A stretch of DNA of 64,000 nt from an uncultured Bifidobacterium sp. (GTDB taxonomy: Bacteria; Verrucomicrobiota; Verrucomicrobiia; Limisphaerales; JADLHS01): contig CAZQNQ010000010.1 in NCBI GenBank assembly GCA_964594985.1, positions 71,466 to 135,465 on the forward strand. The letters are read 5' to 3'. Of this stretch, positions 11,055-62,508 are shown piece by piece; position 1 is the first letter of the stretch; each line of letters opens with the position of its first letter. The translations under genes and the position numbers were made by a program. Under the pieces are notes generated by a model. The model made no database searches. It had not been told where the DNA came from and saw nothing but the letters and a program-made list of their open reading frames with translations.

Positions 11055-14000
11055 ATGAGCCTGATTCGTTTTGTACTTCTGCTCTCGGCGAGTTTATTTC
11101 TCGCAACTCCGTCTCTGCATGCCACGCCGGAAAACATCTGGCTCATCGGTGTGGATGAAGACCCGTTTTCTTCGGGCTACAATGCCACGATTGCCACGGA
11201 TGAGTTCTCGTCAGAGAATTATGTCAACGACGCACCGCCTGGAACGATTTACACCGCCGCCAATCCCGTAGTGGACGATGACTTTTATTTCCCCGGCACT
11301 TTTCCCATCGGCTTCAACAACCTGACTACGAATCGCACGGTGCTGAATGCGGAAACCAACCGCGGCTGGGAACGCGCGCTCACCGACGGCGACCGGACGA
11401 ACCGGGTTCATTTCTTTCTCACCAGCCCGCAGGCGGGTGCGCAGTCGCGACTACGTCTGAGTTTTGAGCTGATTCAAGGCGGCATCTGGCTGCCGTTGCT
11501 CGGACAGAGTGGCGAGGGTTTTGGCATCCACGACATTGCCGTGCGCTTCCGCAACAGCACTGGCACAACAACGTTGATCTACTCCAACCGGCTGGATCGG
11601 GACACGCGCATCGTCGTGGATTTCCCGGCGAGCAGCGTGGCGGCATCTGCCGGGCCAAACTCGATCGAGTTCGCACGGGTTGGACCGTTCACGGCAAACA
11701 CCGGGTATTGGATTCAATTCGATTACGCCCAACTTGAAGCCGACACCAACGCGCTCGCTGATGCGGACGGCGATGGTTTGCCGCGCTGGTGGGAGGTGGA
11801 CAACGGCCTGAGCGACACGAACGCCGCCGATGCCGCGAGCGACAAGGACGGCGATGGCCGCACGGCGTTGCAGGAATACAACAACGGCAATAACTCGACG
11901 AATCCAAATCGCGCCGACACCGATGGCGACGGCCTGAGCGACGGCATGGAGTTCGCATTGGGAACGAATCCAAACAAGACCGACACCGACGGTGATTCCA
12001 TTTCTGACGCCGACGAGGCGAATGGCTCGCCCCCCTCAAATCCGTTGCTGGTGGACTCCGACGGCGATGGCGCGCCCGATTCATTGGAGCGCCGCGTCGG
12101 AACGAATCCCTCCAGCGCCGCGAGCGTGCCGACAACTTTTCGCGGCGGCATCGGGATTCATTTCGTTTCCGAAAACGACCGCAATGCGACGCTGGACATG
12201 AACGAAACGGCCGGCGTCGTGCCACAGTTGCGCTGGAACGATACAATGCCGATTCGTGCCTGGACTCGTCCCAGCGGTGGCAAAGCCGACATCTTCACGC
12301 CACTCACGAATCAGATTGTCCGCAGTGATGGGGTGATCGCGGCAAACCTCACGTTCGCTTGGACGGCGGAAGCAACTGATGCGAGCGACAACGCCGGCTC
12401 ATCCGACCGCAAACTCATGAGCGGATTCATTCGCGCTCCCAACTCCGGTCAAGCCACGCTTACATTGAGCAACATTCCGTTCGCCAGTTACGATCTCTAC
12501 GTCATCGTCGGCGGTTCGTATGACGGGCAACGGGGACGGCTGCGCCTGAATGGAAGCAGCACCACTGACCGATTCTTCCGCACTGTCACGACTGCGCCAC
12601 AAAAGGATTTCGTCGAAATCAAACCCGGCGCGACGAATTATCCCTACGCCAACGTTGTGCTCTACACGAATCTCACCAGCAGCACGGCGACGTTGAACGT
12701 GACGAACGTGGACGGCTGGGCGGTCGGCATTCACGCGGTGCAGATCATTGATCGCAGTCTGGACTCCGACGCCTCGGGCATTCCTGACTGGTGGGAGATG
12801 AAATACGCGTTGCAACCCGGTTCAACCGCGCTGGCGGCGGCCGACACTGACGGTGATGGTTTGAGTAACCTGCAGGAGTTTCAACGCGGAACGAATCCGC
12901 GCCTCGCTGACAGTGATGGCGACGGATTGTCCGACAGTCAGGAAGTGGCGCTCGATACAAACCCGCTCAATGCCGACACGGATGGTGATGGTTTGTCCGA
13001 CGGCGCTGAAGTCAATGCGCCCATCCCGACCAATCCCAACCTCGCCGACACCGACGGTGACGGCGTCAGCGATCGCGACGAAAGCATGCGCGGCACTGAT
13101 CCGACCTACAATGCCGCCGCCGCTCCCGGTTACATCGGCGTCGTGCCGTACTTCCAAGGCTCACCGTCGCGCTGGGAATGGCGCATGGACAATATCCAAC
13201 TTGTCTGGGATCACGGCGCCGGTGCGCTTGCTCCGAACATCTGGAATGAGGATTATCTCGTCGAATTTGCCGTGAAGAATCCCGCCACGACCGACTGGCG
13301 GTCGCTCGGCATGGTGCTGCGGCACTACAACGGCGTGCTGACTTACACGTTCCATTCCGAAGTCACGGGTGCGTTCAGTTATTCAAGCCAGCCGAACAGT
13401 TCGATCTGGGATTCAGGCAGCACCGACCTGAAAGCGGGGCTTGGCTTCAGTGGTTACGGTCCGGCGGATATCTCGTCGCGACTCCAGTTCCGCGTTTTCG
13501 CCCAGCGCGGGGCGAACAGCAATTCATGGTCGGTCACCTTCACCATCACCAACCAGACGAGCAACACGTTGGTCTTGTCCCGCACGTTCAACAACTGCAC
13601 CGCGCGCGGTGCGCTTGACACCGGCACGGCGAAGTGGACCGATTACAACAACGTCACGAATCAATGCAGCATGGTCGTGCATCAGGGCGCGAAACTATTC
13701 ATCACTACGAACGTCCTGGAAAATCTCCCTGCGTTTGCCAGCGCCAAGGATTCCGACAACGACGGCATGCCCGACGTCTGGGAGGATGCGAATCTGTTCA
13801 ATAAATTCTCTGCCGCCGATGCGACCCTTGATGCGGACGGCGACGGCCTGAACAATCGCGATGAATTTTTGGCGGGAACGAACCCGCGCAATCCGGACTC
13901 CGATGGCGACGGCATCAGTGATTCGCTCGAACGCGCCAACGCCTCGAATCCATTGCTGGCGTCGAGCAAGCCTGAGTTCACCGGCCAGACTTTGCCCAGT

Positions 14001-16148
14001 GGTCAGGATCTGGACGGCAACGGTCTGCCGGATGCGTGGGAAATCCGCTATCGCGCCTTCGGACTGCCGCCGAATGGCGATGCGGATGGCGACGGTGCTT
14101 CCAATGCGCTGGAAGCCAAGTGGGGCACAAATCCCTTCGATGCCAATTCCAGACCTGCCGTCGCGATGGCGAAGCAAACGAACGATGTCGTCGTGGCCTG
14201 GCCGAACATTTCGGGTAAAGACCAGCGATTGTTTTCCAGCACGACGTTGACGAACTGGACGCAATTCGGTGGCGTGCCGTGGCTGAGTGGGAACACGGCC
14301 TTTGTCATCTTCACCAATCGTACGGCCCAGACGAATCGCGAGTTTTATCGCGTCAGCACAGACGATAAGGATACCGACGGTGACGGCGTGAAGGATTGGG
14401 ATGAATTTGTGCTGGGCAGCGATCCATTGCGCGCAAACAGCACTCGCGCCGCGCTGCCGCTGATTGCCAGCAACGGCACGGTCACGGGTTCGGTGGCGGG
14501 CGATTATGCCGCGTTTGTCCAGCAGATGCGCGGCGGGCCGGGCGGCAGCACGGGTTTGGTGACGCGGGCACAAGCGGCGCGTTTGCTTCAGCAGGCGACG
14601 TTCGGTCCGACGTTGCGCGAGTTGGATCGCGTGCAGCAACTCGGTATCGCGGCTTGGATTGACGATCAGATCACGAATGCGCCTGCCACGCTCCATCGGC
14701 CCTACATGGAACAGATCTACGCGGACTTCAACGGCCCGCGCACCGACCTCACCTATCTTTACAGCGAGATGGACGATTTCATCTTCGGCAACAACTGCAC
14801 GACACCGTTCGCGCGTGCGGCCTTGAGCGGGCCGGATCAGTTGCGACAGCGCGTGGCGTTTGCGCTGAGCCAGATCTGCGTCATCTCGCGGCGCGATCCA
14901 AATCTGGAAAACAAACCGCTCGCGGTGGCGGACTACTACGACATCTTCGTGCGCAACGCGTTTGGCAATTACTACGACGTGCTGCACGAAGTGACGTTGC
15001 ATCCGGTGATGGGCCGTTATCTCAGCCATATCGGCAATCAAAAAGCGCGGCCCGAGATCAACCAGTATCCCGACGAAAACTACGCGCGCGAAGTGCAGCA
15101 ACTTTTCACCATCGGCCTGTGGGAACTGAATCCCGACGGCACGCGCCAACTTGATGGCTTCGGCCAGCCAATCCCAACTTACGGCAACGCGCAGATCACC
15201 GAGTTCGCCCGCGTGTTCACCGGCTTGTGGTTCGGCGGCCAGTCGTGGGGCAATAATGGCTGGAGCGATGACGATTCCTCCGTGCCGATGCAGATGTGGG
15301 CGGAGAAACACGACTTCGACGCAAAGATGTTGTTGAAGGGCGCGACCATCCCCGCGCGAACCGCAACCGTGGAGAATGGCATGCGCGACATTGATGACGC
15401 CTTGCGCAACCTCTTCGAGCATCCGAACACCGGCCCGTTCATCGGCAGGCAATTGATTCAATTCCTCGTCACGAGCAATCCGTCGTCGAATTATGTCGCC
15501 CGCATCGCGGCCAAGTTTGCCAACGACGGCAGCGGCCAGCGCGGCAATCTCGCCACCGTCATCAAAGCGATCCTGCTCGACGAGGAAGCCCGTGATGCGC
15601 GGTGGTTTTTGGGCGCGCCGGAATTTGGCCGGTTGAAAGAGCCGGTGCATCGGGCGATGGCGATTGCCCGCACGGGCAATATCGGTCGCTACCCCAATCT
15701 GCTGTGGTGGACATGGGGCGATTTCAATTCCGCCGCTTTCCAAGAGCCGACGTATTCGCCGAGCGTGTTCAACTTTTTCCGGCCGAGTTATCAGCCGCCC
15801 GGCTTGCTGACGCAGGCAGGACTCGTCGGTCCGGCCTTCCAGATCACCGACAGCTATTCGAGCATCTCGTTCCCGAACAAGCTCTGGGAGATGACCCAGA
15901 CCGGCCTGAACTATTACAACACGTACAGTTTTCCGCCCGACTACGCGGACTTGTTGCCGGTGTCTGGCGATGCGGGATTGTTGGTGGATCAAGTGAACCT
16001 GCTGTTCTGCGGCGGCTCGATGTCCGCAGCGACTCGCGACAATCTCGTCAACGCCGTGAATCAAGTTGCGTCGTATGACCGCCTGCTGCGCATTCGGCTG
16101 GCGGTTTATCTGGCAGCGACGTGTCCGGAAGGAGCGGTGCAACGATGA
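11055..16148 (+). CDS. Giant secreted protein: repeated thrombospondin type-3-like Ca-binding repeats fused to a C-terminal DUF1800 domain
   Basis: Signal peptide MSLIRFVLLLSASLFLATPSLHA. Many DxDxDGxxDxxE units (DTDGDGLSDGMEF, DSDGDGLSDSQE and others) in at least five clusters. The C-terminal ~500 aa carry DUF1800-like ENYAREVQQLFTIGLWELNPDG and HPVMGRYLSHIGN. Confidence 0.85.
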   Translation: MSLIRFVLLLSASLFLATPSLHATPENIWLIGVDEDPFSSGYNATIATDEFSSENYVNDAPPGTIYTAANPVVDDDFYFPGTFPIGFNNLTTNRTVLNAETNRGWERALTDGDRTNRVHFFLTSPQAGAQSRLRLSFELIQGGIWLPLLGQSGEGFGIHDIAVRFRNSTGTTTLIYSNRLDRDTRIVVDFPASSVAASAGPNSIEFARVGPFTANTGYWIQFDYAQLEADTNALADADGDGLPRWWEVDNGLSDTNAADAASDKDGDGRTALQEYNNGNNSTNPNRADTDGDGLSDGMEFALGTNPNKTDTDGDSISDADEANGSPPSNPLLVDSDGDGAPDSLERRVGTNPSSAASVPTTFRGGIGIHFVSENDRNATLDMNETAGVVPQLRWNDTMPIRAWTRPSGGKADIFTPLTNQIVRSDGVIAANLTFAWTAEATDASDNAGSSDRKLMSGFIRAPNSGQATLTLSNIPFASYDLYVIVGGSYDGQRGRLRLNGSSTTDRFFRTVTTAPQKDFVEIKPGATNYPYANVVLYTNLTSSTATLNVTNVDGWAVGIHAVQIIDRSLDSDASGIPDWWEMKYALQPGSTALAAADTDGDGLSNLQEFQRGTNPRLADSDGDGLSDSQEVALDTNPLNADTDGDGLSDGAEVNAPIPTNPNLADTDGDGVSDRDESMRGTDPTYNAAAAPGYIGVVPYFQGSPSRWEWRMDNIQLVWDHGAGALAPNIWNEDYLVEFAVKNPATTDWRSLGMVLRHYNGVLTYTFHSEVTGAFSYSSQPNSSIWDSGSTDLKAGLGFSGYGPADISSRLQFRVFAQRGANSNSWSVTFTITNQTSNTLVLSRTFNNCTARGALDTGTAKWTDYNNVTNQCSMVVHQGAKLFITTNVLENLPAFASAKDSDNDGMPDVWEDANLFNKFSAADATLDADGDGLNNRDEFLAGTNPRNPDSDGDGISDSLERANASNPLLASSKPEFTGQTLPSGQDLDGNGLPDAWEIRYRAFGLPPNGDADGDGASNALEAKWGTNPFDANSRPAVAMAKQTNDVVVAWPNISGKDQRLFSSTTLTNWTQFGGVPWLSGNTAFVIFTNRTAQTNREFYRVSTDDKDTDGDGVKDWDEFVLGSDPLRANSTRAALPLIASNGTVTGSVAGDYAAFVQQMRGGPGGSTGLVTRAQAARLLQQATFGPTLRELDRVQQLGIAAWIDDQITNAPATLHRPYMEQIYADFNGPRTDLTYLYSEMDDFIFGNNCTTPFARAALSGPDQLRQRVAFALSQICVISRRDPNLENKPLAVADYYDIFVRNAFGNYYDVLHEVTLHPVMGRYLSHIGNQKARPEINQYPDENYAREVQQLFTIGLWELNPDGTRQLDGFGQPIPTYGNAQITEFARVFTGLWFGGQSWGNNGWSDDDSSVPMQMWAEKHDFDAKMLLKGATIPARTATVENGMRDIDDALRNLFEHPNTGPFIGRQLIQFLVTSNPSSNYVARIAAKFANDGSGQRGNLATVIKAILLDEEARDARWFLGAPEFGRLKEPVHRAMAIARTGNIGRYPNLLWWTWGDFNSAAFQEPTYSPSVFNFFRPSYQPPGLLTQAGLVGPAFQITDSYSSISFPNKLWEMTQTGLNYYNTYSFPPDYADLLPVSGDAGLLVDQVNLLFCGGSMSAATRDNLVNAVNQVASYDRLLRIRLAVYLAATCPEGAVQR

Positions 16149-16157
16149 CAAGCGAAT

Positions 16158-16255
16158 TCAACATCGAACATCCAACATCCAACGCTCAAGACCCAAGACG
16201 ACGCGCGCGTCAGCATCATTGGATGTTCGATGTTGGAAGTTGGGTGTTGGATGTT
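16158..16255. repeat. Periodic-arm hairpin repeat (ACATCCAAC units; family E)
   Basis: AACATCGAACATCCAACATCCAAC... faces ...TTGGATGTTCGATGTTGGAAGTTGGGTGTTGGATGTT. A second copy at 57439-57533. Fills the DUF1800-DUF1501 spacer. Confidence 0.75.
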
Positions 16256-19741: not shown

Positions 19742-20401
19742 ATGAACACCACCATTGAAGGCCGTCCGGCGTTCGCCCACATGCACGTGGACCTGGCACC
19801 CGGCGAAAGCATCATCGCGGAATCCGACGCCATGGCCAGCATGGCCGCCGACCTCGACCTGAAGGCGCAGTTCAACGGCGGCTTCTTCTCCGGCCTCTGC
19901 AAAAAATTTCTTGGCGGCGAATCGCTCTTCGTCAACGTCTTCACGAACAACACCGATGGTCCGCGCCGCGTCACGCTCGTGCAACCGACGCCCGGCGACA
20001 TGGGCGTGATCGAATTGAAGGGCAACTCCATGTGCTTGCAGCCGGGCGCGTATATCGCCTCGACGCCGGGTGTGAAACTTGGGTTGAAGTGGGCGGGCTT
20101 TGCTTCGTTCATCGGCAAGGAAGGTTTGTTCAAGCTCATCGTCTCCGGCACGGGTACGGTCTGGTATGGCGCGTATGGATCGTTGTTGGAAAAACCGGTG
20201 GACGGCGAATTCATCGTGGACACGAGCCATCTGGTGATCTACGAACCGCAACTCAAGCTCAAGGTGCAGATGGCAGGCGGCATCTTCAGCAGCTTCTTCG
20301 GTGGCGAAGGTCTCGTCACCCGCGTCAACGGCAAGGGCAACGTCGTCATCCAGACGCGCAGCCTCGAAGGTTTGAAGAGTTGGTTGAACCCGCGGCTTTG
20401 A
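19742..20401 (+). CDS. AIM24/TIGR00266 (DUF124) family protein, paralog 1
   Basis: Starts 1 nt after the M48 stop. Shares motifs LGGESLF and GGEGLV..V.G.G.V.IQT with the next two ORFs. Confidence 0.8.
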   Translation: MNTTIEGRPAFAHMHVDLAPGESIIAESDAMASMAADLDLKAQFNGGFFSGLCKKFLGGESLFVNVFTNNTDGPRRVTLVQPTPGDMGVIELKGNSMCLQPGAYIASTPGVKLGLKWAGFASFIGKEGLFKLIVSGTGTVWYGAYGSLLEKPVDGEFIVDTSHLVIYEPQLKLKVQMAGGIFSSFFGGEGLVTRVNGKGNVVIQTRSLEGLKSWLNPRL

Positions 20402-20429
20402 TATGATCTCGCAAGTTAGCGATAATTCC

Positions 20430-20581
20430 GCCCTCACCCCGACCCTCTCCCCCAGGAGAGGGGGAAGCATAGACGCTTTTGATTCATGGAACGCCGGCAT
20501 GGCAAATCCAGTCGCAGGAAAAATCTCAGCACGCGGGAACAATGACTCCCTCTCCCCGGGGGAGAGGGCCGGGGTGAGGGC
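20430..20581. repeat. MITE-like palindromic element (family B) with GCCCTCACCCCG(A/G)CCC...GGGCCGGGGTGAGGGC termini
   Basis: About 30-nt terminal inverted repeats, each containing its own CCCTCTCCCC..GGGGAGAGGG palindrome. The same element in the same orientation lies inside the ATPase CDS at 56579-56712. Confidence 0.85.
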
Positions 20582-20640
20582 GAGCGTGAAAACATTCTTT
20601 CACTTCGCCCACCAAGAGCACCAACAACACGCTTCCTCAC

Positions 20641-21318
20641 ATGCAAACTGAAATCATCCACAGTCCCGGCAGCGCCGCGGCGCGCATCCGGCTCGATGCC
20701 GGCGAAACCATCACGGCGGAAGGCGGCTCGATGATCGCGCTCGGCGGCGAGGTGACGCTCCAGACCAGCACGCATCAAAAGGGCAAAGGCGGTTTGATCA
20801 AAGGACTCAAGCGCCTGCTCGGCGGCGAATCCTTTTTCCTCAACCACTACACCGCGGGTATGTCCGGCGGCGAAGTCTGGCTCGCGCAGACCTTGCCCGG
20901 CGACATGATGAAACTCGCGCTCGAAAACCAGACGCTCATTGTGCAGGCCGGTTCGTTCGTCGCAAGTTCGGCGGACGTGGGCATGGAAGTCGGCTGGCAG
21001 GGTTTCAAGAATTTCCTCTCCGGCGAAAGCCTCTTCTGGCTGCGCATCGGCGGGACGGGCCGCTTGATCCTGAGTTCCTACGGCGCAATCTATCCCGTGC
21101 AGGTCAGTGGCGAATACATCGTGGACACCGGCCATATCGTCGCGTTTGAGGAGACGCTGAACTTCAAGTTGAGCAAGGCTGGCAAGAGCTGGATGTCGTC
21201 CATCCTCGGCGGCGAAGGGCTCGTCTGCAAATTCCAAGGGCAAGGCATCGTCTGGTGTCAGTCGCACAACGCGCCGAGCTTCGGCGGCATCATCGGCCCG
21301 AAACTCCGCGCCCGCTAA
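20641..21318 (+). CDS. AIM24/TIGR00266 family protein, paralog 2
   Basis: LLGGESFFLNHYTA and LGGEGLVCKFQGQGIVWCQS, collinear with paralogs 1 and 3. Confidence 0.8.
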   Translation: MQTEIIHSPGSAAARIRLDAGETITAEGGSMIALGGEVTLQTSTHQKGKGGLIKGLKRLLGGESFFLNHYTAGMSGGEVWLAQTLPGDMMKLALENQTLIVQAGSFVASSADVGMEVGWQGFKNFLSGESLFWLRIGGTGRLILSSYGAIYPVQVSGEYIVDTGHIVAFEETLNFKLSKAGKSWMSSILGGEGLVCKFQGQGIVWCQSHNAPSFGGIIGPKLRAR

Positions 21319-21326
21319 CAACCTTT

Positions 21327-21479
21327 AACCACGAATGAACACGAATAGACACGAATGGGATTTGACTGGTAGGGCGCGTCACTCCGTGCGCGCCGACCTT
21401 TGCCAGCCAGACGACGGCGCGCACGGAGTGACGCGCCCTACCCGTTCCGCTTCGTGTCCATTAGTGTCCATTCGTGGTT
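21327..21479. repeat. Nested palindromic element (family A, copy 2)
   Basis: AACCACGAATGAACACGAATAGACACGAATGG ... TTCGTGTCCATTAGTGTCCATTCGTGGTT outer arms. Inner 28-bp perfect arms at 21368-21395 and 21415-21442, identical to copy 1. Confidence 0.85.
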
Positions 21480-21489
21480 ACTCCCTCTC

Positions 21490-22173
21490 ATGAACCAACA
21501 AACTTCCGAATACGAATATCGCGTCGAAGCGCAGCCGGACTTCAGCTTCCTGACGGTGAAGTTGCAACCCGAGCAGACCCTCAAGGTCGAAGCCTCCGCC
21601 ATGGCGACGATGGACACCAACCTCCGCATGAAGACCAAGATGCGCGGCGGATTGAAACGCCTGCTCACCGGCGAATCCCTGTTCATCAACGAATTCACCG
21701 CCCAGAACGGCCCGGGCGAAATCGGCATCGCGCCCGGCGCGCCCGGCGATCTGGACCACGTCTATCTCGAGAACGACACGATCTATCTGCAGAACACCGC
21801 CTACGTCGCGTCGAGTCCGGCGGTGAACATCGAGACCAAGTGGCAGGGACTCATCAAAGGCATTTTCTCCGGCGAATCCCTCTTCCTTATCAAATGCTCC
21901 GGCCAGGGCGACGTGTGGTTCAACACGTTCGGCGGCATGATCGTGATTGATGTGGACGGCTCGTACGTCGTGGACACCGGCCACATCGTCGCCTTCACCG
22001 AAGGGCTGCAATACAACGTCGGTCGCATTGGTGGCTACAAATCGCTGTTCTTCTCCGGCGAAGGGTTGGTCTGCCACTTCACCGGGCGCGGGCGATTGTG
22101 GATTCAGACGCGGAAGATCGGCGCGTTCACGAGCTGGGTTTATCCTTACCGCCCGCAGAAGAAGGGGGATTAA
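21490..22173 (+). CDS. AIM24/TIGR00266 family protein, paralog 3
   Basis: Start chosen at MNQQTSEYEY, because the ORF-track N-terminal extension reads through the repeat. Motifs LLTGESLFINEFTA and FSGEGLVCHFTGRGRLWIQT. Confidence 0.8.
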   Translation: MNQQTSEYEYRVEAQPDFSFLTVKLQPEQTLKVEASAMATMDTNLRMKTKMRGGLKRLLTGESLFINEFTAQNGPGEIGIAPGAPGDLDHVYLENDTIYLQNTAYVASSPAVNIETKWQGLIKGIFSGESLFLIKCSGQGDVWFNTFGGMIVIDVDGSYVVDTGHIVAFTEGLQYNVGRIGGYKSLFFSGEGLVCHFTGRGRLWIQTRKIGAFTSWVYPYRPQKKGD

Positions 22174-22613: not shown

Positions 22614-22749
22614 CTAAAACTTGATCGCCTCGTTCAGCTTGCCGCATTGGGAACAGCGGGAACGGTCCACGTCCGGGGTCGGCGGTGTAAACCAGACCGC
22701 ATTTCTCGCAGCGGAAGATTCGGTCCTCACTCTGACCTGATCGGAAACG
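22614..22749 (-). pseudogene. Degenerate duplicate of the 3' end of the zinc-ribbon gene at 22850..23074
   Basis: About 136 nt align with 22850-22985. The first 60 nt are identical, followed by substitutions and a 1-nt indel that breaks the frame. Confidence 0.75.
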
Positions 22750-22849: not shown

Positions 22850-23074
22850 CTAAAACTTGATCGCCTCGTTCAGCTTGCCGCATTGGGAACAGCGGGAACG
22901 GTCCACGTCGGGGTCGTCGGTGTAAACCAGACCGCACTTCTCGCAGCGGAAAACCCGGTCTTCGCTCTGGCCCGGACGGAAGCGGCGCCCGCGCATCTCG
23001 CTGTAAATGGTCAACGCCACCAAACCGCCCAGCAGCAGCGTCACGTAACTGAAGATGAGCGCGTGCGTGGTCAT
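22850..23074 (-). CDS. Small membrane-anchored zinc-ribbon protein
   Basis: MTTHALIFSYVTLLLGGLVALTIY (TM), then CEKC...CSQC. The ATG overlaps the stop of the upstream TonB-like gene (ATGA). Confidence 0.65.
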   Translation of the reverse strand: MTTHALIFSYVTLLLGGLVALTIYSEMRGRRFRPGQSEDRVFRCEKCGLVYTDDPDVDRSRCSQCGKLNEAIKF

Positions 23075-31849: not shown

Positions 31850-31940
31850 CCCGACAAAGCGAAGGAATCCGGTCACGCGGCAACCGTAGAAACATTCCCC
31901 CGCCCTGCCAAGCCCGGATGTTGCACCCGCGCCCGGACCT

Positions 31941-32088
31941 AGAACGGTTTTCAAAAAAATGTTGGAAACAAAATCCCCCCACCCGGCCTGGCGGCCACCC
32001 TCTCCCCATCGGATGGGGAGAGGGCCGGGGTGAGGGGCGTTTCGCAAAGCGGGAGTTTTCAACATTCATTTTGGGGTACGCTCTAAAA
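31941..32088. repeat. Family C repeat (diverged copy) with core palindrome CCCTCTCCCCATCGGATGGGGAGAGGG
   Basis: Collinear with 49818-49966 and 62361-62508, and with 57575-57663 in inverse orientation. Confidence 0.75.
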
Positions 32089-36804: not shown

Positions 36805-37272
36805 ATGCAAAGTTTGATGAGCGCACCGCAGGAACAATACGACGACGCCATGTTCGCCTTCAGCCAGGGTGATTACGACGGGTGCATCGAGAAACTGCGC
36901 CCCATCCTCGCGAGCGATCCGACGCATTTCGACGCGCAACTCTCCCTTGGCATGGCGTTCTATCGCAAAGGCGATTTCGCCACCGCCATCGCCGAAGGCC
37001 ACAAAGCTGAGCAACTGCGCCCCAAGGAACAGCTTGTTCACACGAACCTGTCGTTGTTCTACATGAAGTCCGGCGACAAACAAACCGCCGAACATCACGG
37101 CCTGCAAGCGCGCATCGCCTCGTGGCGCGAGGACAAATCCAAACCCGGCGAAACTCCCGCCACCGCGTCCGACCCCGAACTGGCGTTCGTGAAACCACCC
37201 ACACCGCCGCCCCTCAAGCCGCCGGAGAAATTCCCCGACATGCCGTGGAAGAAGAAAAAAGTTGATGGTTGA
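36805..37272 (+). CDS. TPR repeat protein
   Basis: Start at MQSLMSAPQEQYDDAMFAFSQGDYDGCIEKL. Three TPR-like units and a Pro-rich tail. Confidence 0.7.
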   Translation: MQSLMSAPQEQYDDAMFAFSQGDYDGCIEKLRPILASDPTHFDAQLSLGMAFYRKGDFATAIAEGHKAEQLRPKEQLVHTNLSLFYMKSGDKQTAEHHGLQARIASWREDKSKPGETPATASDPELAFVKPPTPPPLKPPEKFPDMPWKKKKVDG

Positions 37273-37304
37273 ACTTTGAAACACATCGAAATATGCATTG
37301 TTTG

Positions 37305-37379
37305 GGTAGGGCGCGTCACTCCGTGCGCGCCGTCGTCTGGCTGGCCCAATACGGCGCGCACGGAGTGACGCGCCCTACC
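37305..37379. repeat. Family A inner hairpin, copy 3 (inverted loop, no outer arms)
   Basis: 28-bp arms at 37305-37332 and 37352-37379, identical to copies 1 and 2. The loop TCGTCTGGCTGGC is the reverse complement of the copy-2 loop. Confidence 0.85.
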
Positions 37380-37432
37380 AGCCAAAGGCAAAGCCGTCAT
37401 TTAATTAAGGTTCTCAACAGAAGCTAACGAAT

Positions 37433-39129: not shown

Positions 39130-39138
39130 AACGGGCTT

Positions 39139-39180
39139 ATTCCGGCTCATTCCGGCTCATTCCGGCTCATTCCGGCTCAT
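39139..39180. repeat. Tandem 10-bp repeat (ATTCCGGCTC x 4.2)
   Basis: Perfect tandem copies between and overlapping the 3' ends of the two convergent genes. The GH28 stop codon lies inside it. Confidence 0.9.
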
Positions 39181-40603
39181 GATGCTTAATTCGCTCGTTT
39201 GTTTCCCGCACATTCTCTACGTTCCGCAGGCTGTTCGTCCGGCTGTGCGCTTGGTTGACCGTGATATTTTCAAGAAAGACGTCGCGCACGGGTAGCTTCG
39301 CATCGCCCGCGATTTTGATGGGCGTGTCGGTTTCTTCGACTTGAATGTTTTTGAGGTGAATGCCCCGGATGGGCGTGAGCTTTTCCTCGTAGGTCGGCAC
39401 GAGGTCGCGCCATTGGTAGAGCACGTCGGTATCAATACCCAGCACGCCAAACTTCGTGCTCTTGGCGGCGATGTTCTCGACATGGATGTTCTCCACGAAA
39501 CCGCCGCGCCGCCGGTTGGTCTTGATGAAGACGATGTTTTGCGGTGGGTTCGAGTCAGCGTTGTCGAACCGGCAGTCATGCACATACACATTACGGATGC
39601 CGCCGGAAAGTTCGCTGCCGATGGCGACCAGTTGATGCCCGCGCACCATCGTGCAGTTGCGGACGACAATGTTCTCCGAAGGCGTGTTCAACCGCCGCCC
39701 GTCGAAATCCATCCCAGCCTTGATGGCGATGGCATCGTCGCCCTGATCAAACCGGCAATCTTCCACGAGCAGATTGCGCGTCATCTCCGGATCAATGCCG
39801 TCGTTGTTGCGATTGCGCGCCACGATGTCCACGCGCCGGACCACGACGTCTTCGCTCAACAACAGGTGAATCGTCCAGAACGGGCTGTTGCGGATCTTCA
39901 CGTCTTCGATGAGCACATTCCGGCAGCGATTGAACTGGATGAACTGCGGACGCAGATGATTTTCCCCGACCGCCATCTGACGCTGCGCGACCGGCGCATT
40001 CGTATAAGCAAAGTGATAAAGCCGCTTCAACGCTTCCAGATGCGCGGGGGGCCGGGTGAACCACTGTTTCCAAACGTCCAATCGCGCCTCAATCATGCCC
40101 TGGCCCGTGAGCGCGACATTCGTGCAGCCAAACGCATAAATCAGCGGTGAATAGTTGAAGCACTCCGTCCCCTCCCAACTCGATTGCACGGCGGGCAAGT
40201 AATCCTCTGGCCTGGCGCTGAAGTAGAGCGTCGCGCCCTCAGCGAGGTGAAGGTTGACGTTGCTTTGCAGATGAACTTTTCCCGTCAGCCATTTGCCGCG
40301 CGGAATCACGACTTTGCCGCCGCCCGCCGCGTGACAGGCCGTGATAGCTTTGTGGATGGCTTCAGAGATGTTTGTATTCCCGCCTTCCACCGCGCCGAAA
40401 TCCGTGACGACAAAATCACGGTCGGGAAACACCGGGATTTTGATTGCCGGCATGGTGAACGGCGCGGCCACGAAAATCTCCTGATGCCGGATGCCGTTGG
40501 TTTCGGCCCGCACAAAATTTGCCGCCAAAAACAGCGCGAACAACGCGCCAAGCAGCATGGCAAATGACTTGGTCATCAAAGATAAAGTGACTGGCTTTGC
40601 CAT
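39167..40603 (-). CDS. Glycoside hydrolase family 28 (polygalacturonase-like, parallel beta-helix)
   Basis: Start at MAKPVTLSLMTKSFAMLLGALFALFLAANFVRA (signal peptide). GH28-like NRNNDGIDP, FDQGDDAIAIK and RGHQLVAIGSE motifs. Confidence 0.85.
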   Translation of the reverse strand: MAKPVTLSLMTKSFAMLLGALFALFLAANFVRAETNGIRHQEIFVAAPFTMPAIKIPVFPDRDFVVTDFGAVEGGNTNISEAIHKAITACHAAGGGKVVIPRGKWLTGKVHLQSNVNLHLAEGATLYFSARPEDYLPAVQSSWEGTECFNYSPLIYAFGCTNVALTGQGMIEARLDVWKQWFTRPPAHLEALKRLYHFAYTNAPVAQRQMAVGENHLRPQFIQFNRCRNVLIEDVKIRNSPFWTIHLLLSEDVVVRRVDIVARNRNNDGIDPEMTRNLLVEDCRFDQGDDAIAIKAGMDFDGRRLNTPSENIVVRNCTMVRGHQLVAIGSELSGGIRNVYVHDCRFDNADSNPPQNIVFIKTNRRRGGFVENIHVENIAAKSTKFGVLGIDTDVLYQWRDLVPTYEEKLTPIRGIHLKNIQVEETDTPIKIAGDAKLPVRDVFLENITVNQAHSRTNSLRNVENVRETNERIKHHEPE

Positions 40604-49465: not shown

Positions 49466-49819
49466 GTGGCCTCGCAACCAAAAGCTCGCACCCGCCTCCG
49501 CATCTATCACGGGGAACGGATTGCGCTCGGCCCGGGCAAAGTGGAGTTGCTCACACGCATCGCGGCGACCGGCTCGATCTCCGAAGCCGCCCGGCAGATG
49601 GGCATGTCGTATAACCGCGCGTGGCTGCACGTTCAGGACATCAACAAAAGTTTCAAGTCGCCGCTGGTCACGTCATTGCGCGGCGGCAATTCCGGCGGCG
49701 GCGCGGCGCTGACGGAAACCGGGAAACAAATCCTCGCTTTGTATCAACAGTTGGAAACCGAAGCCCAAGCCGCGACCGAGAAAACCTGGAAACAAGTCCA
49801 GCAACTGCTGCGCGATTAG
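49466..49819 (+). CDS. ModE-like molybdenum-responsive regulator, N-terminal wHTH only (no Mop/TOBE domains)
   Basis: GPGKVELLTRIAATGSISEAARQMGMSYNRAWLHVQDIN...GGNSGGGAALTETG matches the ModE N-terminal domain. Only 117 aa. Confidence 0.75.
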   Translation: MASQPKARTRLRIYHGERIALGPGKVELLTRIAATGSISEAARQMGMSYNRAWLHVQDINKSFKSPLVTSLRGGNSGGGAALTETGKQILALYQQLETEAQAATEKTWKQVQQLLRD

Positions 49820-49966
49820 AACAGTTCGCAAAATGTTTGGCGGAACCGAATTTCCCGCACCCGGCCGGTGGCCACCCTCTCCCCATCCGATGGGGAGAGG
49901 GTCGGGGTGAGGGGCCTTTCGCCAGCACCTCGTTCCCGACCTTCTTTTGGCAGGACGCTCTAACCC
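49818..49966. repeat. Family C repeat (about 150 bp) with core palindrome CCCTCTCCCCATCCGATGGGGAGAGGG
   Basis: AGAACAGTTCGCAAAATGTTTGGCGGAACCGAATTTCCCGCACCCGGCCGG... is nearly identical to 62361-62508. Starts within the modE-like stop codon. Confidence 0.85.
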
Positions 49967-54874: not shown

Positions 54875-57358
54875 ATGAGTGCCAATCACAAATCTCCCCC
54901 AGCGGCCACCCCGGTAAGCGGTTGTCTCACGCGGGCGGTGACGTCGGTCTTGATGGAAGAACCGACGCTGGAGGCGGTGACGATTGATCCCGGACACAAA
55001 AAAATCTCGGTCGCCACGCTCGGCCGCACCGACGAATCCCGCCTGCGCGCCCGCATCAGCGCCAAACTGGCGGAAGCCGAGCGCGCGGACAGTCCGCACG
55101 CGTGCCAGTTGCTCATCACGGGCGGCAGTTGCGCGAACTGCGCCACCCCGTTGAGCGAGCCGGAGCGCAATCAATTCACCATCCGCCACGACCACGGGGC
55201 CATGACCGTCGCGCGCGTGACCTGCCCGACGGCCCCAAAATTCTGGCGGTGGCGCGATCTGCCCTTTCCCAAGATTGTCCAGCGCGACGTCGAGTTTCTC
55301 GAACACGCGGACGAAGATCACGATCATCACCACGCGGACGAATGGAAATTGCAACTCGTGCTCGCAGTCGCTTGTGGCGGGTTGGGTTTGCTCGCGGCGT
55401 ATGCCGTGCCGGCGGCGTGGCGCGTGCCGGTGTTTGTCTTGAGTTATCTCGCGGGCGCATGGTTTCCGGCGGAAGAAGTCTGGGAACGGTTACGCCAGCG
55501 GGCGATTGATGTCCACTTCCTGATGCTCGCCGTCGCGGCGGGCAGCGCGAGCATCGGCGCGTGGGGTGAAGGCGCGACGTTGCTATTTCTCTTCTCGCTG
55601 TCCGGTGCGCTGGAACATTACGCGTTGGGGCGAACGCAAAAGGAAATCCGCTCGCTGTTCCGCGAAGCGCCGAAGACCGCGACGGTACTTGAAGCGAATG
55701 GCGGCGAGCGCGAGGTCAAAGTGGAATTGCTGAAAACCGGGATGCGGTTGCTGGTGAAGCCCGGCTCGCAATTCCCCGTGGACGCGGAAGTCCTGAAAGG
55801 CGGCACGGCGGCGGATGAATCCAACCTCACCGGCGAAGCGACCCCCGTGGAAAAAGCCGTTGGTGACCCGGTGCTGGCGGGTACAATCAATCTGTGGGGC
55901 GCGGTGGAAGTCGGCGTGCTGCGACCAGCGGCGGAAAGTTCGCTCCAGAAGATCATCAAGCTCATCAAAGACGCGCAGCACCAGAAAGCCCCGTCGCAGC
56001 AGTTCACGGACAAGTTCAGCACGTATTACACGTACGGCGCGTTGGCGTTGTCGGCAGGGATGTTCTTTGTCTGGTGGTTGGGATTTGGGCTGACACCGTT
56101 CACGTCGGAGGGCGAGACCAAGAGCGCGTTTTATCGGACCATGACGCTGCTCGTGGTGGCGTCGCCGTGCGCGCTGGTGTTGTCCATTCCGTCGGCGGTG
56201 CTGGCGGCGATTGCGTGGGGCGCGCGACATGGCGTGTTGATCCGCGGCGGCGCGGCGGTGGAAAAGCTGGCGGACGTGAACATCGTGGCGCTCGACAAGA
56301 CCGGCACGTTGACCACGGGCGAATTACGCGTGGAAAAGGTGGAGAGCTTTCCGCCGGGCCGCGAAACCGAGGTCGCCCAACTGGCCTACTCGCTCGACCG
56401 GCTTTCGACGCATCCGCTCGCGCGGGCCGTCACGCGCCACGGCAAGCAGCAAGGGTTGACGCCGCTGGAATTTGAACACTTTGAATCCGTGACCGGCCAA
56501 GGCGTGAAAGGGCGTTGCGCGCAAGGCGAGTGTTTGGTTGGCAGGCGCGAGTGGGTTTTGGAGTCAGTGAAAACACTCGCCCTCACCCCGGCCCGCTCCC
56601 CCAGGGAGAGGGAGAACGTAAAGAATGCGCTCGTAAATCCGGCGGCTGCGGAATCCTTTCAACGCGGGAACAATGAACTCCCTCTCCTGGGGGAGAGGGC
56701 CGGGGTGAGGGCGGACTCTCTTTCCGAAGGCAAAACAACCGCCTCTGGCACTTCCGAAGTCTGGCTGAACAACGATGATTTGCTGGGCCGCATCGTGCTG
56801 CGCGACGATATCCGGCCCCAGGCCCAGGGCGTGGTGGACGAACTCAAGCGGAGCGGCCTGCGCACGGTGGTATTGACCGGGGATCGCCGCGCGGCGGGCG
56901 AACATCTCAAAACCGAATTGCATCTCGACGAGGTTCGCGCCGAGTTGAAGCCGGAAGAGAAAGTCGCGGCGATCGTGGCGTTGAGCGATGGCCACAATCG
57001 CGTGGCGATGATCGGCGACGGCGTGAACGACGCGCCGAGTCTGGCGGCAGCGCACGTCGGCGTGGCAATGGGCGCGCGGGGTTCGGATGCGGCCCTGGAA
57101 CAGGCGGACGTCGTGTTGATGCACGACCGGCTGGAGAATTTTCTGGCGGCGTTTCGCTTGAGTCAGCGGGCGCGACGCATCATCCGGCAGAATTTGTTCG
57201 TGTCGCTCGGCACGGTGGCGGTGCTGGTGGTCTTCGCGCTCATCGGGAAGATTCCATTGCCCGTGGGCGTGGTCGGCCACGAAGGCAGCACGGTGATTGT
57301 GGTGATGAACAGTCTGCGGCTGCTCTTCGGCGAAGCGAACCCGAAGGCCAGGAGCTAG
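54875..57358 (+). CDS. Heavy-metal P1B-type ATPase, P1B-4-like (SPC / HEGST signatures), carrying an in-frame repeat insertion
   Basis: DKTGTLT, GDGVNDAP, TM motif VVASPCALVLSIP and terminal VGHEGSTVIV. No classical GMTCxxC HMA domain. Residues ~569-613 are encoded by a family B repeat. Confidence 0.88.
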   Translation: MSANHKSPPAATPVSGCLTRAVTSVLMEEPTLEAVTIDPGHKKISVATLGRTDESRLRARISAKLAEAERADSPHACQLLITGGSCANCATPLSEPERNQFTIRHDHGAMTVARVTCPTAPKFWRWRDLPFPKIVQRDVEFLEHADEDHDHHHADEWKLQLVLAVACGGLGLLAAYAVPAAWRVPVFVLSYLAGAWFPAEEVWERLRQRAIDVHFLMLAVAAGSASIGAWGEGATLLFLFSLSGALEHYALGRTQKEIRSLFREAPKTATVLEANGGEREVKVELLKTGMRLLVKPGSQFPVDAEVLKGGTAADESNLTGEATPVEKAVGDPVLAGTINLWGAVEVGVLRPAAESSLQKIIKLIKDAQHQKAPSQQFTDKFSTYYTYGALALSAGMFFVWWLGFGLTPFTSEGETKSAFYRTMTLLVVASPCALVLSIPSAVLAAIAWGARHGVLIRGGAAVEKLADVNIVALDKTGTLTTGELRVEKVESFPPGRETEVAQLAYSLDRLSTHPLARAVTRHGKQQGLTPLEFEHFESVTGQGVKGRCAQGECLVGRREWVLESVKTLALTPARSPRERENVKNALVNPAAAESFQRGNNELPLLGERAGVRADSLSEGKTTASGTSEVWLNNDDLLGRIVLRDDIRPQAQGVVDELKRSGLRTVVLTGDRRAAGEHLKTELHLDEVRAELKPEEKVAAIVALSDGHNRVAMIGDGVNDAPSLAAAHVGVAMGARGSDAALEQADVVLMHDRLENFLAAFRLSQRARRIIRQNLFVSLGTVAVLVVFALIGKIPLPVGVVGHEGSTVIVVMNSLRLLFGEANPKARS
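56579..56712. repeat. Family B MITE-like palindromic element embedded in frame in the ATPase CDS
   Basis: GCCCTCACCCCGGCCCGCTCCCCCAGGGAGAGGG...ACGCGGGAACAATGAACTCCCTCTCCTGGGGGAGAGGGCCGGGGTGAGGGC is collinear with the intergenic copy at 20430-20581. Confidence 0.85.
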
Positions 57359-57438
57359 CGCGCTTCGCTAGAGCGTACGGCAAGAAGAATGTCGGGAATA
57401 ATGCGCTGACGAAACACCCCTCCCCATGAACCCTTGGG

Positions 57439-57533
57439 AACATCCAACATCCAACCTCGAACCCTCAACACCCAAGGCCTGACCAAGCGACGCTCCTTGG
57501 AGGTTCAAGGTTGGGGGTTGGATGTTCGATGTT
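57439..57533. repeat. Periodic-arm hairpin (ACATCCAAC units), second copy
   Basis: AACATCCAACATCCAACCTCGAACCCTCAACACCCAAGG faces CCTTGGAGGTTCAAGGTTGGGGGTTGGATGTTCGATGTT. Confidence 0.8.
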
Positions 57534-57574
57534 TTCCGGCGGTTCAGGGGGTCAAAGCGTGAAATCCCATTGGG

Positions 57575-57663
57575 GAGAATTCTCTCCCCATCCGATGGGG
57601 AGAGGGGGGCCGAAGGCCGGGTGAGGGGAATTCGGTTCCGCCAAACATTTTGCGAACTGTTCT
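57575..57663. repeat. Family C repeat, partial, inverted orientation
   Basis: ...TCTCCCCATCCGATGGGGAGAGG...GGGTGAGGGGAATTCGGTTCCGCCAAACATTTTGCGAACTGTTCT is the reverse complement of the 5' half of 49818-49966. Confidence 0.8.
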
Positions 57664-57751
57664 AAAATTCTCCCCGCAGCGACCGGACTTCGGGTGGAAG
57701 TTCCCGCCCTTTGCAAAGTTCCAGAGAGAGAGCATCCCTCCAAGCTTTGCA

Positions 57752-58015
57752 TCATTCGTTCAATCCCCAATACCGCGGGGTCAGCGGACGGTCCATGATT
57801 TCGGCCAGGACTTCGGTCATGGCCTCGGCCCGCTGGTGCATCGCGCGCTCGAGGGGCAACTCCTTCGCGGGTGGATATTCCCCGGCGGTTTTCAGGACTG
57901 AGTTTTCCGTCGCGAGGAGCGAAACCGCAATCTGGCTCGATCCGCCCGCCGGGACGCTGGTTTGATCTGGCAGGACGTTCATATAAAACCTTTGCACGTC
58001 CGGGCCGATCCGCAT
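57752..58015 (-). CDS. Hypothetical small protein
   Basis: 87-aa ORF downstream of and co-directional with the AraC gene. GC-rich third positions. No family recognised. Confidence 0.4.
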   Translation of the reverse strand: MRIGPDVQRFYMNVLPDQTSVPAGGSSQIAVSLLATENSVLKTAGEYPPAKELPLERAMHQRAEAMTEVLAEIMDRPLTPRYWGLNE

Positions 58016-58102
58016 TTTATTTTTGCGGAAAAAACGGCGCGAAAATTGGCCGGGTAATCAGTCGCAGCACTGATGGAAAGCCGGGCTGACGGAGGAGTGC
58101 CG

Positions 58103-62233: not shown

Positions 62234-62360
62234 ACGCCCTCACCGTCGCAGGCCGGAACAGAAACGGCTCCGCGCGCGTTGGCGATTTGCGCCCGGATTT
62301 TGGCGGTGCTGCTCCGCATCAGATCGGAAGCAGGCGACCGGCGGCCGGATGAGGTGTTTT

Positions 62361-62508
62361 AGAACAGTTCGCAAAATGTCTGGCGGAACCGAATTCCCCG
62401 CACCCGGCCGGCGGCCACCCTCTCCCCATCGGATGGGGAGAGGGCCGGGGTGAGGGGCGTTTTGCCAGCCCATCGTTTCCGACCTTCTTTTTGCAGTACG
62501 CTCCAACC
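62361..62508. repeat. Family C repeat, copy between the two cytochrome genes
   Basis: Nearly identical to 49818-49966. A further imperfect periodic-arm hairpin follows at about 62510-62677. Confidence 0.85.

Follow-up and report, generated by a model that had tools for sequence, protein, structure and literature searches.

A translated BoxC-type palindromic doublet in the N-domain linker of a verrucomicrobial P1B-4-type ATPase

Described palindromic repeats and the place of E1 among them

The short repeat called BoxC, PIT or TM_ECO is among the most widely conserved ones in bacteria, and to our knowledge it has neither a known function nor a known enzyme that mobilises it. What becomes of such a repeat inside a coding region? 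The subject of this text is a 134-nt palindromic element, hereafter E1, which lies in frame within the gene of a P1B-4-type ATPase on a 64-kb stretch of DNA (the window) from a Pedosphaera-like verrucomicrobium. Very probably, E1 is a non-autonomous BoxC doublet which has been fixed in a permissive linker of the nucleotide-binding domain (N-domain) of a working pump, and which is old, inherited and passively tolerated there. It would consist of two BoxC / PIT / TM_ECO modules inverted around a 63-nt spacer, like the inverted BoxC doublets of E. coli, and would have settled in a poorly conserved part of a metal-exporting ATPase.

The motif was described as TM_ECO by Holder et al. (2015, NAR; PMC4666352) in the form CCCTCNCCC-N3-6-GGGNGAGGG-N3-GGGNGAGGG, and the same paper gives as its earlier names BoxC, credited to E. 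coli work of the 1990s, and PIT (Maher et al., 2000). It counts 3,610 copies in 262 proteobacterial genomes and also reports G/C-rich triplex motifs in cyanobacteria. In E. coli K-12 the copies are 'always located intergenically', and five of the 18 loci are inverted doublets. [quoted passage not shown] A stable triplex of TM_ECO in duplex DNA or in vivo was not found by Holder et al., and earlier work on the E. coli motif, as far as it is summarised there, saw no promoter or terminator activity (PMC4666352).

We take E1 to be a BoxC-type inverted doublet with a REPIN-like architecture, in a verrucomicrobium, because a blastn search of E. coli matches both of its arms at 88% identity. Among 5,426 complete E. 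coli genomes, 4,461 were matched by E1, at a median of 9 places per genome, and the best places cover both arms (query 11-142), as does the doublet in the cpsG-wcaJ spacer. The arm string GGGGTGAGGG could be traced in the literature to the TM_ECO motif (Holder et al., 2015; PMC4666352). With a pattern that allowed one mismatch for membership, the right arm of E1 (56680-56711) fits TM_ECO with one mismatch or with a shortened first loop, the left arm having one further mismatch, and the right arm of a second copy of the element in the window (20548-20580) is an exact fit, CCCTCTCCC-CGG-GGGAGAGGG-CCG-GGGTGAGGG. Thus E1 is like BoxC/TM_ECO in the pattern and identity of its arms, in its dispersed occurrence in several copies, in its arrangement as an inverted doublet with a spacer, and in the local rearrangement and hairpin-preserving deletions seen among close relatives, as reported for TM loci. 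It is unlike the E. coli K-12 copies, which are intergenic, in being placed inside an open reading frame (ORF) and translated; however, intergenic location is a property of the E. coli set and not part of the definition of the motif. Its host belongs to Verrucomicrobiota while the TM_ECO copies of the paper are proteobacterial, and its 63-nt spacer is longer than that of the E. coli doublet compared (about 34 nt). At the gathering thresholds of Rfam there was no match in the window, and permissive thresholds gave a sub-threshold match to whalefall-1 on the right arm besides chance matches to microRNAs. The match to whalefall-1 RNA (RF01762) covers 56678-56712 and scores 25.1 bits against a gathering threshold of 37, with E = 4e-5 on this short stretch; this metagenome-derived motif may be related to the BoxC/TM motif.

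REPINs are doublets of repetitive extragenic palindromic (REP) sequences which form hairpins and are mobilised by RAYT transposases. E1 has in common with REPs and REPINs the two inverted short palindromic units that make one long hairpin; REPs have no target-site duplication, and none could be defined at E1. Intragenic REP dimers, which like E1 encode tens of amino acids, have been reported, including those in a verrucomicrobium, Opitutus terrae (Di Nocera et al., 2013; PMC3733652). In contrast, the motif of E1 is of BoxC type and not that of a described REP family. A GTAG/CGTC tag does not appear to be conserved at E1: among the seven orthologous genes that carry the element (the loci of orthologs are numbered with L below), CGTC precedes the palindrome in three, and the left flank is ACGTCC in L002, L086 and L083, whereas the remaining carriers have ACGCTC, ACACTC or TCCCTC. 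A RAYT gene did not come to light, and no search aimed at RAYT was made.

Palindromic repeats inserted in frame into genes are described from Rickettsia, where they are called Rickettsia palindromic elements (RPEs; Ogata, 2000, 2002, as summarised in PMC10969869). E1 resembles them as a palindrome of about 130-150 bp which is in frame in a conserved housekeeping gene, leaves the ORF intact and occupies a position predicted to be compatible with the fold; an in-frame insert, orthologs without it, and a retained ORF with its motifs put it in the same class of 'protein-coding palindromes'. However, there is no sequence relationship, RPEs ending in CGTC (PMC3733652), and RPEs are found in many genes of one genome whereas here many palindrome families are found in one loop across lineages. 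E1 adds a case from outside Rickettsia to the short list of translated palindromic repeats.

An earlier note on the window had called E1 MITE-like, MITE standing for miniature inverted-repeat transposable element. Bacterial MITEs (Correia, ERIC, Nezha and others) are also below 200 bp in length, have terminal inverted repeats and form a long stem-loop RNA, and for several of them in-frame fusions with host ORFs are described, according to the summary in PMC10969869. Unlike them, E1 has no definable target-site duplication, and it has two full-length copies in 64 kb and one exact-motif match in GTDB. No cognate insertion sequence or transposase with matching terminal repeats was found, but neither the window nor the carrier genomes were searched for transposases systematically. 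The name holds only as a description, in view of the 134 nt and the 16-nt terminal repeats; the arms are better identified as BoxC/TM_ECO in an inverted-doublet (REPIN-like) arrangement than as a MITE. In-frame palindromes (RPEs and intragenic REPs) and the BoxC/TM motif itself were already known. What is new is a BoxC-type doublet inside a coding region, where it is translated, and its occurrence in Verrucomicrobiota; new also are a set of orthologous copies that separates nucleotide-level from protein-level constraint, and the many palindrome families in one protein loop.

An in-frame element in the linker of a P1B-4-type ATPase

E1 starts with GCCCTCACCCCGGCCC and ends with GGGCCGGGGTGAGGGC, terminal inverted repeats which are perfect over 16 nt and widen to an interrupted stem of 36 bp, and its internal stretch is ACGCGGGAACAATGAACTCCCTCTCC. 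The in-frame palindrome, its terminal repeats and the unbroken 827-aa ORF are as the earlier note had described them; the position given there is right as well, with the small correction that the hairpin stem reaches 2 nt further on each side (56577-56714). A small palindrome lies just inside each end (CTCCCCCAGGGAGAGGG on the left, CCCTCTCCTGGGGGAGAGGG on the right), and each arm has its own 8-9-bp palindrome (CCCTCTCC..GGAGAGGG) while the arms also pair with each other. Folded as RNA, E1 makes one long interrupted hairpin with 36 stem pairs and a minimum free energy of -97.7 kcal/mol, against -59.2 +/- 4.3 kcal/mol in shuffled sequences (z = -8.9). Its first base is exactly a codon position 1, the host frame runs through it without meeting a stop codon, and the net change in length is divisible by three; E1 would thus be translated as a disordered loop of roughly 45 aa and leave the pump functional. 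The translation within the host ORF reads ...KTLALTPARSPRERENVKNALVNPAAAESFQRGNNELPLLGERAGVRADSL..., and the tryptic peptides predicted from the insert include ENVK and NALVNPAAAESFQR. The coordinates of these and other features are collected in Table 1.

Table 1. Position of E1, its parts, its host gene and related modules in the window
Feature	Position	Strand	Description and basis
Host gene	54875..57358	+	Intact 827-aa P1B-4-type heavy-metal (Zn/Cd/Co class) P-type ATPase; ORF list
Variable N-domain linker, GRREW to SEVWL	56555..56752	+	66 aa here against 19-20 aa without insert; protein alignments
E1 palindromic element, 134 nt	56579..56712	+	aa 569-613 (ALTPARSP...ERAGVRA); sequence, fold, ortholog carriers
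Left arm, BoxC / TM_ECO-like module CCCTCTCCCTGGGGGAGCGGGCCGGGGTGAGGGC	56577..56614	-	Pattern match with 1 mismatch; stem pairs; BLAST
Central 63-nt spacer	56615..56677	+	No codon-position pattern; ortholog identity; direct repeat D11
Right arm, BoxC / TM_ECO-like CCCTCTCC-TGGG-GGAGAGGG-CCG-GGGTGAGGG	56678..56714	+	Match to relaxed published pattern
Second E1-family copy, 152 nt	20430..20581	+	Spacer between two tandem paralogous + strand genes; fold
Single TM-like module, 9-nt first loop	32000..32037	+	Inside 150-nt repeat family (31939-32088)
Sister TM-like modules of 32000-32037	49877-49914, 62420-62457		Same 150-nt repeat family

The catalytic motifs of the host ATPase are all present (TGE319, SPC430, DKTGT474, HP513, TGD668, GDGVNDAP714 and HEGST802). 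The protein matches E1-E2_ATPase and Hydrolase of Pfam, and TIGR01525 (570 bits) and TIGR01512 (485 bits) of TIGRFAMs, both over their cut-offs. Its closest sequence matches in PDB are 7qbz (E = 1e-104) and 4umv, and a Foldseek search with the predicted structure gives 4umw, 4bbj and 7qbz at the top, so that the overall fold is that of a P1B ATPase. In the Arguello classification, P1B-4 ATPases are marked by SPC in transmembrane segment 4 (TM4), HEGxT in TM6 and a core of DKTGT, HP and GDGxNDxP, and the host gene has each of these, as SPC430, HEGST802, DKTGT474, HP513 and GDGVNDAP714. 7QBZ is deposited as a cadmium-translocating P-type ATPase, and we take it to be a P1B-4 pump. The P1B-4 label, which the earlier note had already proposed, is reasonable because of the SPC430 and HEGST802 motifs and because 7QBZ is the closest solved relative.

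Is a gene with such an insert still in use? Among close carriers of the element, and with the linker left aside, the ratio of nonsynonymous to synonymous divergence (dN/dS) of the gene lies at 0.07-0.12, with dS of 0.54-1.08; against the distant carrier L083 it is about 0.2. The pump has been kept under purifying selection while carrying the insert and is not inactivated. Inactivation, which had been offered as an option, is refuted because this low dN/dS holds over dS of 0.5-1.1 among carriers and all the catalytic motifs are kept; this pattern of substitution indicates that the pump is functional with the translated insert in it.

For comparison with orthologs, a search of 5.8 billion proteins gave thousands of relatives, of which the 120 best were used for an alignment and a structural model. 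The few named relatives are Verrucomicrobiota, including Pedosphaera, and most of the 120 are 777-784 aa long. Between the invariant GRREW and SE[IV]W the linker has 19-20 aa in most orthologs, e.g. VASVRGDQAVAQVPPTEAGF, and 66-67 aa in the carriers, a net gain of 46-47 aa over the 20-aa linker of insert-free orthologs. The ATPase keeps the same neighbours in the same order (DUF6941, ATPase, PocR/AraC, Usp, cNMP-binding), and therefore the genes compared are true orthologs. E1 is an insertion and not native sequence, because the repeat-free orthologs have the 19-20-aa linker and no segment of equal length was found in them by alignment. A candidate scar, 'SVRGDQ' in empty alleles as a trace of the right arm (GVRAGQ), was considered and rejected, as an equally long, homologous linker of 20 aa is also found in distant empty alleles.

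Where does the insert lie in the protein? In the alignment with 7QBZ, the extra residues fall into a gap of 18 residues (chain residues 464 to 482). The HP and GxG motifs of nucleotide binding precede this gap, and the strands leading back to the P-domain follow it. The AlphaFold2 model built on the 120 sequences has a mean predicted local distance difference test score (pLDDT) of 63, and pLDDT is below 50 for residues 571-615, which are flanked by better-modelled N-domain strands. The insert is thus predicted to be a disordered loop at a non-catalytic position of the N-domain. Both the gap and the low pLDDT agree with the N-domain loop in which the earlier note had placed it, and its suggestion of a tolerated insertion of some 45-50 aa gains support from the intact ORF, the kept motifs, the low dN/dS and the orthologs without insert. 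With regard to a target-site duplication, no consistent flanking direct repeat was found in the seven carriers or at the intergenic copy, the flank similarities being weak and variable (e.g. ATTGGAA in L002). The exact borders of the insertion are indefinable because the flanks of filled and empty alleles are too diverged.

Carriers of E1, the recurrent use of the loop and what is constrained

Six further orthologous genes carry E1, with position, orientation and codon phase unchanged and with exactly 134 nt each: L002, L085 and L086 (JGI), L087 (Logan), and L083 and L084 (ENA). L091, from a metagenome-assembled genome (MAG) at NCBI, GFS_6609, matches L084 and is counted together with it. The most distant carrier, L083, has only 72% nucleotide identity in the gene. 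A chimeric assembly, a doubt raised by the earlier note, is ruled out because the same structure recurs in seven independent assemblies from JGI, ENA, Logan and NCBI. A scan of 185,579 species genomes of GTDB for the internal motif CGCGGGAACAATGAN{0,1}CTCCCTCTCC gave one match, in the same ATPase gene of MAG GFS_6609; the scan needed an exact match and probably misses diverged copies. An exhaustive phmmer search with the insert peptide gave 24 matches, nearly all of 55-170 aa and only P0124 longer (397 aa), and found no second large protein with an in-frame full-length copy. The eight matches examined have the pattern LALTPALSP[RGE]ERE...QRG/QHG...LPLLGERAGVRA, and look like spurious ORFs over other copies of such doublets. 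A word-indexed protein search with the same peptide gave one match, which is uninformative. In P0022 and P0029 (L084, about 2195-2225; L091, about 1250-1285, minus strand) a second in-frame insert, of 8 aa, lies just past the linker; it reads ..WLSQFPSLEGTGVG.. in P0029 and is encoded in L091 by a small palindrome, CCCCTCCTTGGAGGGG.

E1 and its variants are present in orthologs. In L088 there is a single 47-nt hairpin, in which the two outer arms are joined with one inner palindrome between them; in L092 a small hairpin is left as a remnant, and its right flank is that of the window; and L090 has a different palindrome, AACATTCAACATTCAACG... (a family found also at 16160 and 57496 of the window), followed by a remnant, GGGGTGAGGGC. 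These three forms would be decay products of E1. L089 is 91% identical to the carrier L085 across the gene, yet has an unrelated palindrome, GAGCGCCGG...CCGGCGCTC. The linker flanks of the carriers are alike though diverged (V[LM]xSxxT[LS] on the left, GQxxESIIPVEAGF on the right) and differ from those of the nearest empty relatives. Because of these common diverged flanks, we think one old insertion, whose linker allele was spread by homologous recombination and degraded several times over, more likely than repeated site-specific insertion.

It is to be noted that E1 is not the only palindrome in this loop. The linker has at least 26 aa in 27 of 83 orthologous loci, and 18 of these 27 fold with z < -3, against a mean z of -0.35 for empty linkers. 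With two small exceptions, the 120 aligned orthologs have internal indels of at least 5 aa in the linker loop only. Several palindrome families without relation to each other are represented among the inserts, at least five besides E1, and about a third of the orthologs have such palindromes at the same loop. In L033 the insert is a single BoxC-type motif. Some inserts are nested: L012, L016, L024, L030 and L031 have a second palindrome inside the GAGCGCCGG...CCGGCGCTC element. The inner palindrome of that element, in these five loci and in L035, is GTTGGAGTTCAAGC...GTGAACTCCAAC or GGGAGCGCCGGCATCTTGCCGGCG...CGCCGGCAAGATGCCGGCGCTCCC. The simplest reading would be a filter of selection, namely that the loop recurs as a landing site mainly because it is nearly the sole internal place where insertions survive. 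Instability of the resident palindromes may add rearrangement in the loop, and it is possible that hairpins are actively targeted to it. For annotation, the point is that variation in the length of this ATPase loop comes from repeat DNA and not from a domain.

Which part of E1 is under constraint, and is it the peptide or the nucleic acid? The arms (75 nt), the centre (63 nt) and the host gene were compared in all 21 ortholog pairs. Mean identity of the arms is 92.3%, with 94, 90 and 92% at codon positions 1, 2 and 3; that of the centre is 67.5% (64, 73 and 66%, with the spacer ranging from 51 to 87% between carriers), and the host gene has 86.8, 91.1 and 59.4% at the three positions. The arms diverge roughly ten times more slowly than synonymous sites, and their conservation points to a constraint on the nucleic acid, not on the protein. 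The encoded peptide appears to have no function of its own and not to be domesticated, because the centre drifts about equally at all codon positions. Of the 36 pairs in the main stem, 25 are invariant and five vary on one side, mostly to G-U, and 96% of the cells are paired. In a covariation test on the seven in-gene copies there were 0 compensatory double changes, and the observed values lay within those of shuffles. The pattern is thus one of sequence conservation and not of covariation, and selection on structure looks the same in it as conversion by other copies. A BoxC doublet inside a gene offers an internal clock, the synonymous sites of its host, which cannot be had from intergenic copies; it also cleanly separates protein-level from nucleotide-level constraint, and gives a series of decay and replacement at one homologous site.

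How can these observations be put together? If E1 is, as we think very probable, an old BoxC doublet passively tolerated in the linker, a group of orthologs would have inherited it, probably with some exchange among them through homologous recombination, and it would decay by internal deletions that keep a hairpin. Its arms would most likely be held by a force acting at the level of the family, which keeps the motif about 88% identical from E. coli to Verrucomicrobiota, possible forces being conversion from copies elsewhere in the genome and sequence-specific selection on a DNA or RNA structure. Several points weigh against this explanation. The carriers are scattered among empty alleles in a neighbour-joining tree made with the linker masked, and the identity of the element does not follow the divergence of the gene (L002 and L085 have 93% in the element versus 82% in the gene), so that recombination, repeated loss or repeated gain is needed. 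No target-site duplication can be defined and the borders are blurred by the diverged flanks, the quality of the AlphaFold model is only moderate, and conservation of the arms could reflect a function in situ. In this last case selection on the nucleic acid would maintain the hairpin or the BoxC motif within the gene, for example for translational pausing, as a site of mRNA stability or processing, or as a protein- or triplex-related DNA site. Such a function would fit the arms, 92% identical at all three codon positions against 59% at third positions of the gene, the nearly complete pairing of the stem and the invariant 134-nt length in seven carriers; moreover, all five one-sided changes in the main stem keep the pair, mostly as G-U, which matters for RNA only. 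Nevertheless we consider it unlikely: the 36 pairs include no compensatory double change and the 25 invariant ones are uninformative on structure, E1 is missing from most orthologs and is replaced or shortened in close relatives, and stem mismatches are accumulating in L086. Furthermore, the same motif is kept across phyla in intergenic DNA, and therefore conservation of the arms need not be tied to the ATPase gene; nor did the earlier work on E. coli, in the summary cited above, find promoter or terminator activity.

Repeated independent insertion, with E1 and the other palindrome families actively targeting this exact site, would account for carriers that are polyphyletic in the tree, for an element more alike between some carriers than their synonymous sites are, and for the five or more other families in the loop with their nesting. 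It is quite unlikely in our view, since length, orientation and codon phase agree in all seven copies, the carriers' flanking linker residues are alike and unlike those of the nearest empty relatives, and a spacer diverged to 51-87% is not expected of recent insertions from one master copy; the GTDB scan, within its limit of exact matching, also finds the internal motif only in the ATPase gene. Domestication, in which the 45-aa peptide would, for instance, have come to regulate the pump or to serve as an interaction surface, had been another option of the earlier note. In seven carriers no stop has closed the frame over dS of about 0.5-1.1, and the peptide ends, ALTPALSPGERE and LPLLGERAGVRA, are conserved; but these ends are the translated arms, equally conserved at codon position 3, the central third has no excess conservation at positions 1 and 2, the segment is predicted to be disordered, most orthologs either lack E1 or have unrelated palindromes there, and an open frame is what survival requires in an essential part of an ORF. 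Domestication is thus highly improbable. As for a pseudogene, native sequence or an assembly chimera, the only thing that would suggest them is the oddity of a hairpin of -98 kcal/mol inside an ORF, and we give them next to no credence in the face of the intact ORF and motifs, dN/dS of 0.07-0.12, the 20-aa linker of empty orthologs and the seven independent assemblies. A bolder idea, somewhat unlikely though it is, joins two of these threads: BoxC/TM may have a sequence-specific function, in the cell or in mobility, that is under selection even when the motif is translated, in a linker that is actively targeted by palindromes which insert, nest and replace each other. If this were true, the seven dated in-gene copies would be a natural experiment, in which arms evolving about ten times more slowly than synonymous sites reveal a nucleic-acid constraint in situ.

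Other copies and repeats in the window

The second, intergenic copy of E1 which the earlier note had listed is real. Its arms are nearly identical to those of E1 and the right half of the interior is common to both, with an 18-nt indel and 70% overall identity; the stretches common to the two include the sub-terminal CAACGCGGGAACAATGAA of the spacer and ACGCGGGAACAATGA. Its RNA fold has -91.7 kcal/mol (z = -7.4). An antisense ORF overlaps this copy, but it is the + strand that seems to hold the coding genes there. With at most 3 mismatches, the 16-mer terminal repeat is matched 8 times in the window, against 1.15 expected, and none of 100 shuffles reaches 8; a 20-mer, GGAGAGGGYYGGGGTGAGGG, has 7 matches against 0 expected. 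Full-length copies of the E1 family in the window number two, and no other clearly intragenic repeat was seen there on a crude ORF map, which is not the output of a gene caller.

At 19742-22173 lie three tandem paralogous + strand genes with common motifs (GGCGAATCCCTGTTCATCAACGAATTC and others), whose spacers hold the E1 copy (20430-20581) and a repeat of a composite family, D3 (21326-21480). Members of this composite family lie at gene ends (2014-2156, 21326-21480 and 37263-37386) and have AACCACGAATG/ACACGAAT-type units around a perfect 28-29-nt palindrome, GGTAGGGCGCGTCACTCCGTGCGCGCCG. A separate family of 150 nt, D1, has copies at 31939-32088, 49816-49965 and 62359-62508, with 70-91% identity, and a partial, inverted one at 57582-57667; within it lies a BoxC-like module whose first loop has 9 nt, CCCTCTCCCCATCGGATGGGGAGAGGGCCGGGGTGAGGGG.

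Downstream of the ATPase stop, the spacer up to the divergent PocR/AraC gene (57359-58102, about 745 nt) is packed with repeats, among them a palindromic AACATCCAAC-type unit at 57496-57533, whose partner is at 16160-16197, and the partial D1 copy at 57582-57667. The gap between the same two genes is only 10 nt in L001, an ortholog with an empty allele.

Adjacent copies of a segment of roughly 135 nt are found at 22614-22749 and 22850-22984, with a spacing of 236 nt; identity between them is 98% over the first 64 nt and 84% over the following 76 nt, which looks like a small tandem duplication of a gene or segment. A short tandem array at 39134-39183 has about five copies of a 10-nt unit, GGCTCATTCC. 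Finally, a very long ORF at 11055-16148 (about 1,697 aa) has repeated GACACCGACGGTGACGGC (DTDGDG-type) units and may encode a calcium-binding repeat protein.

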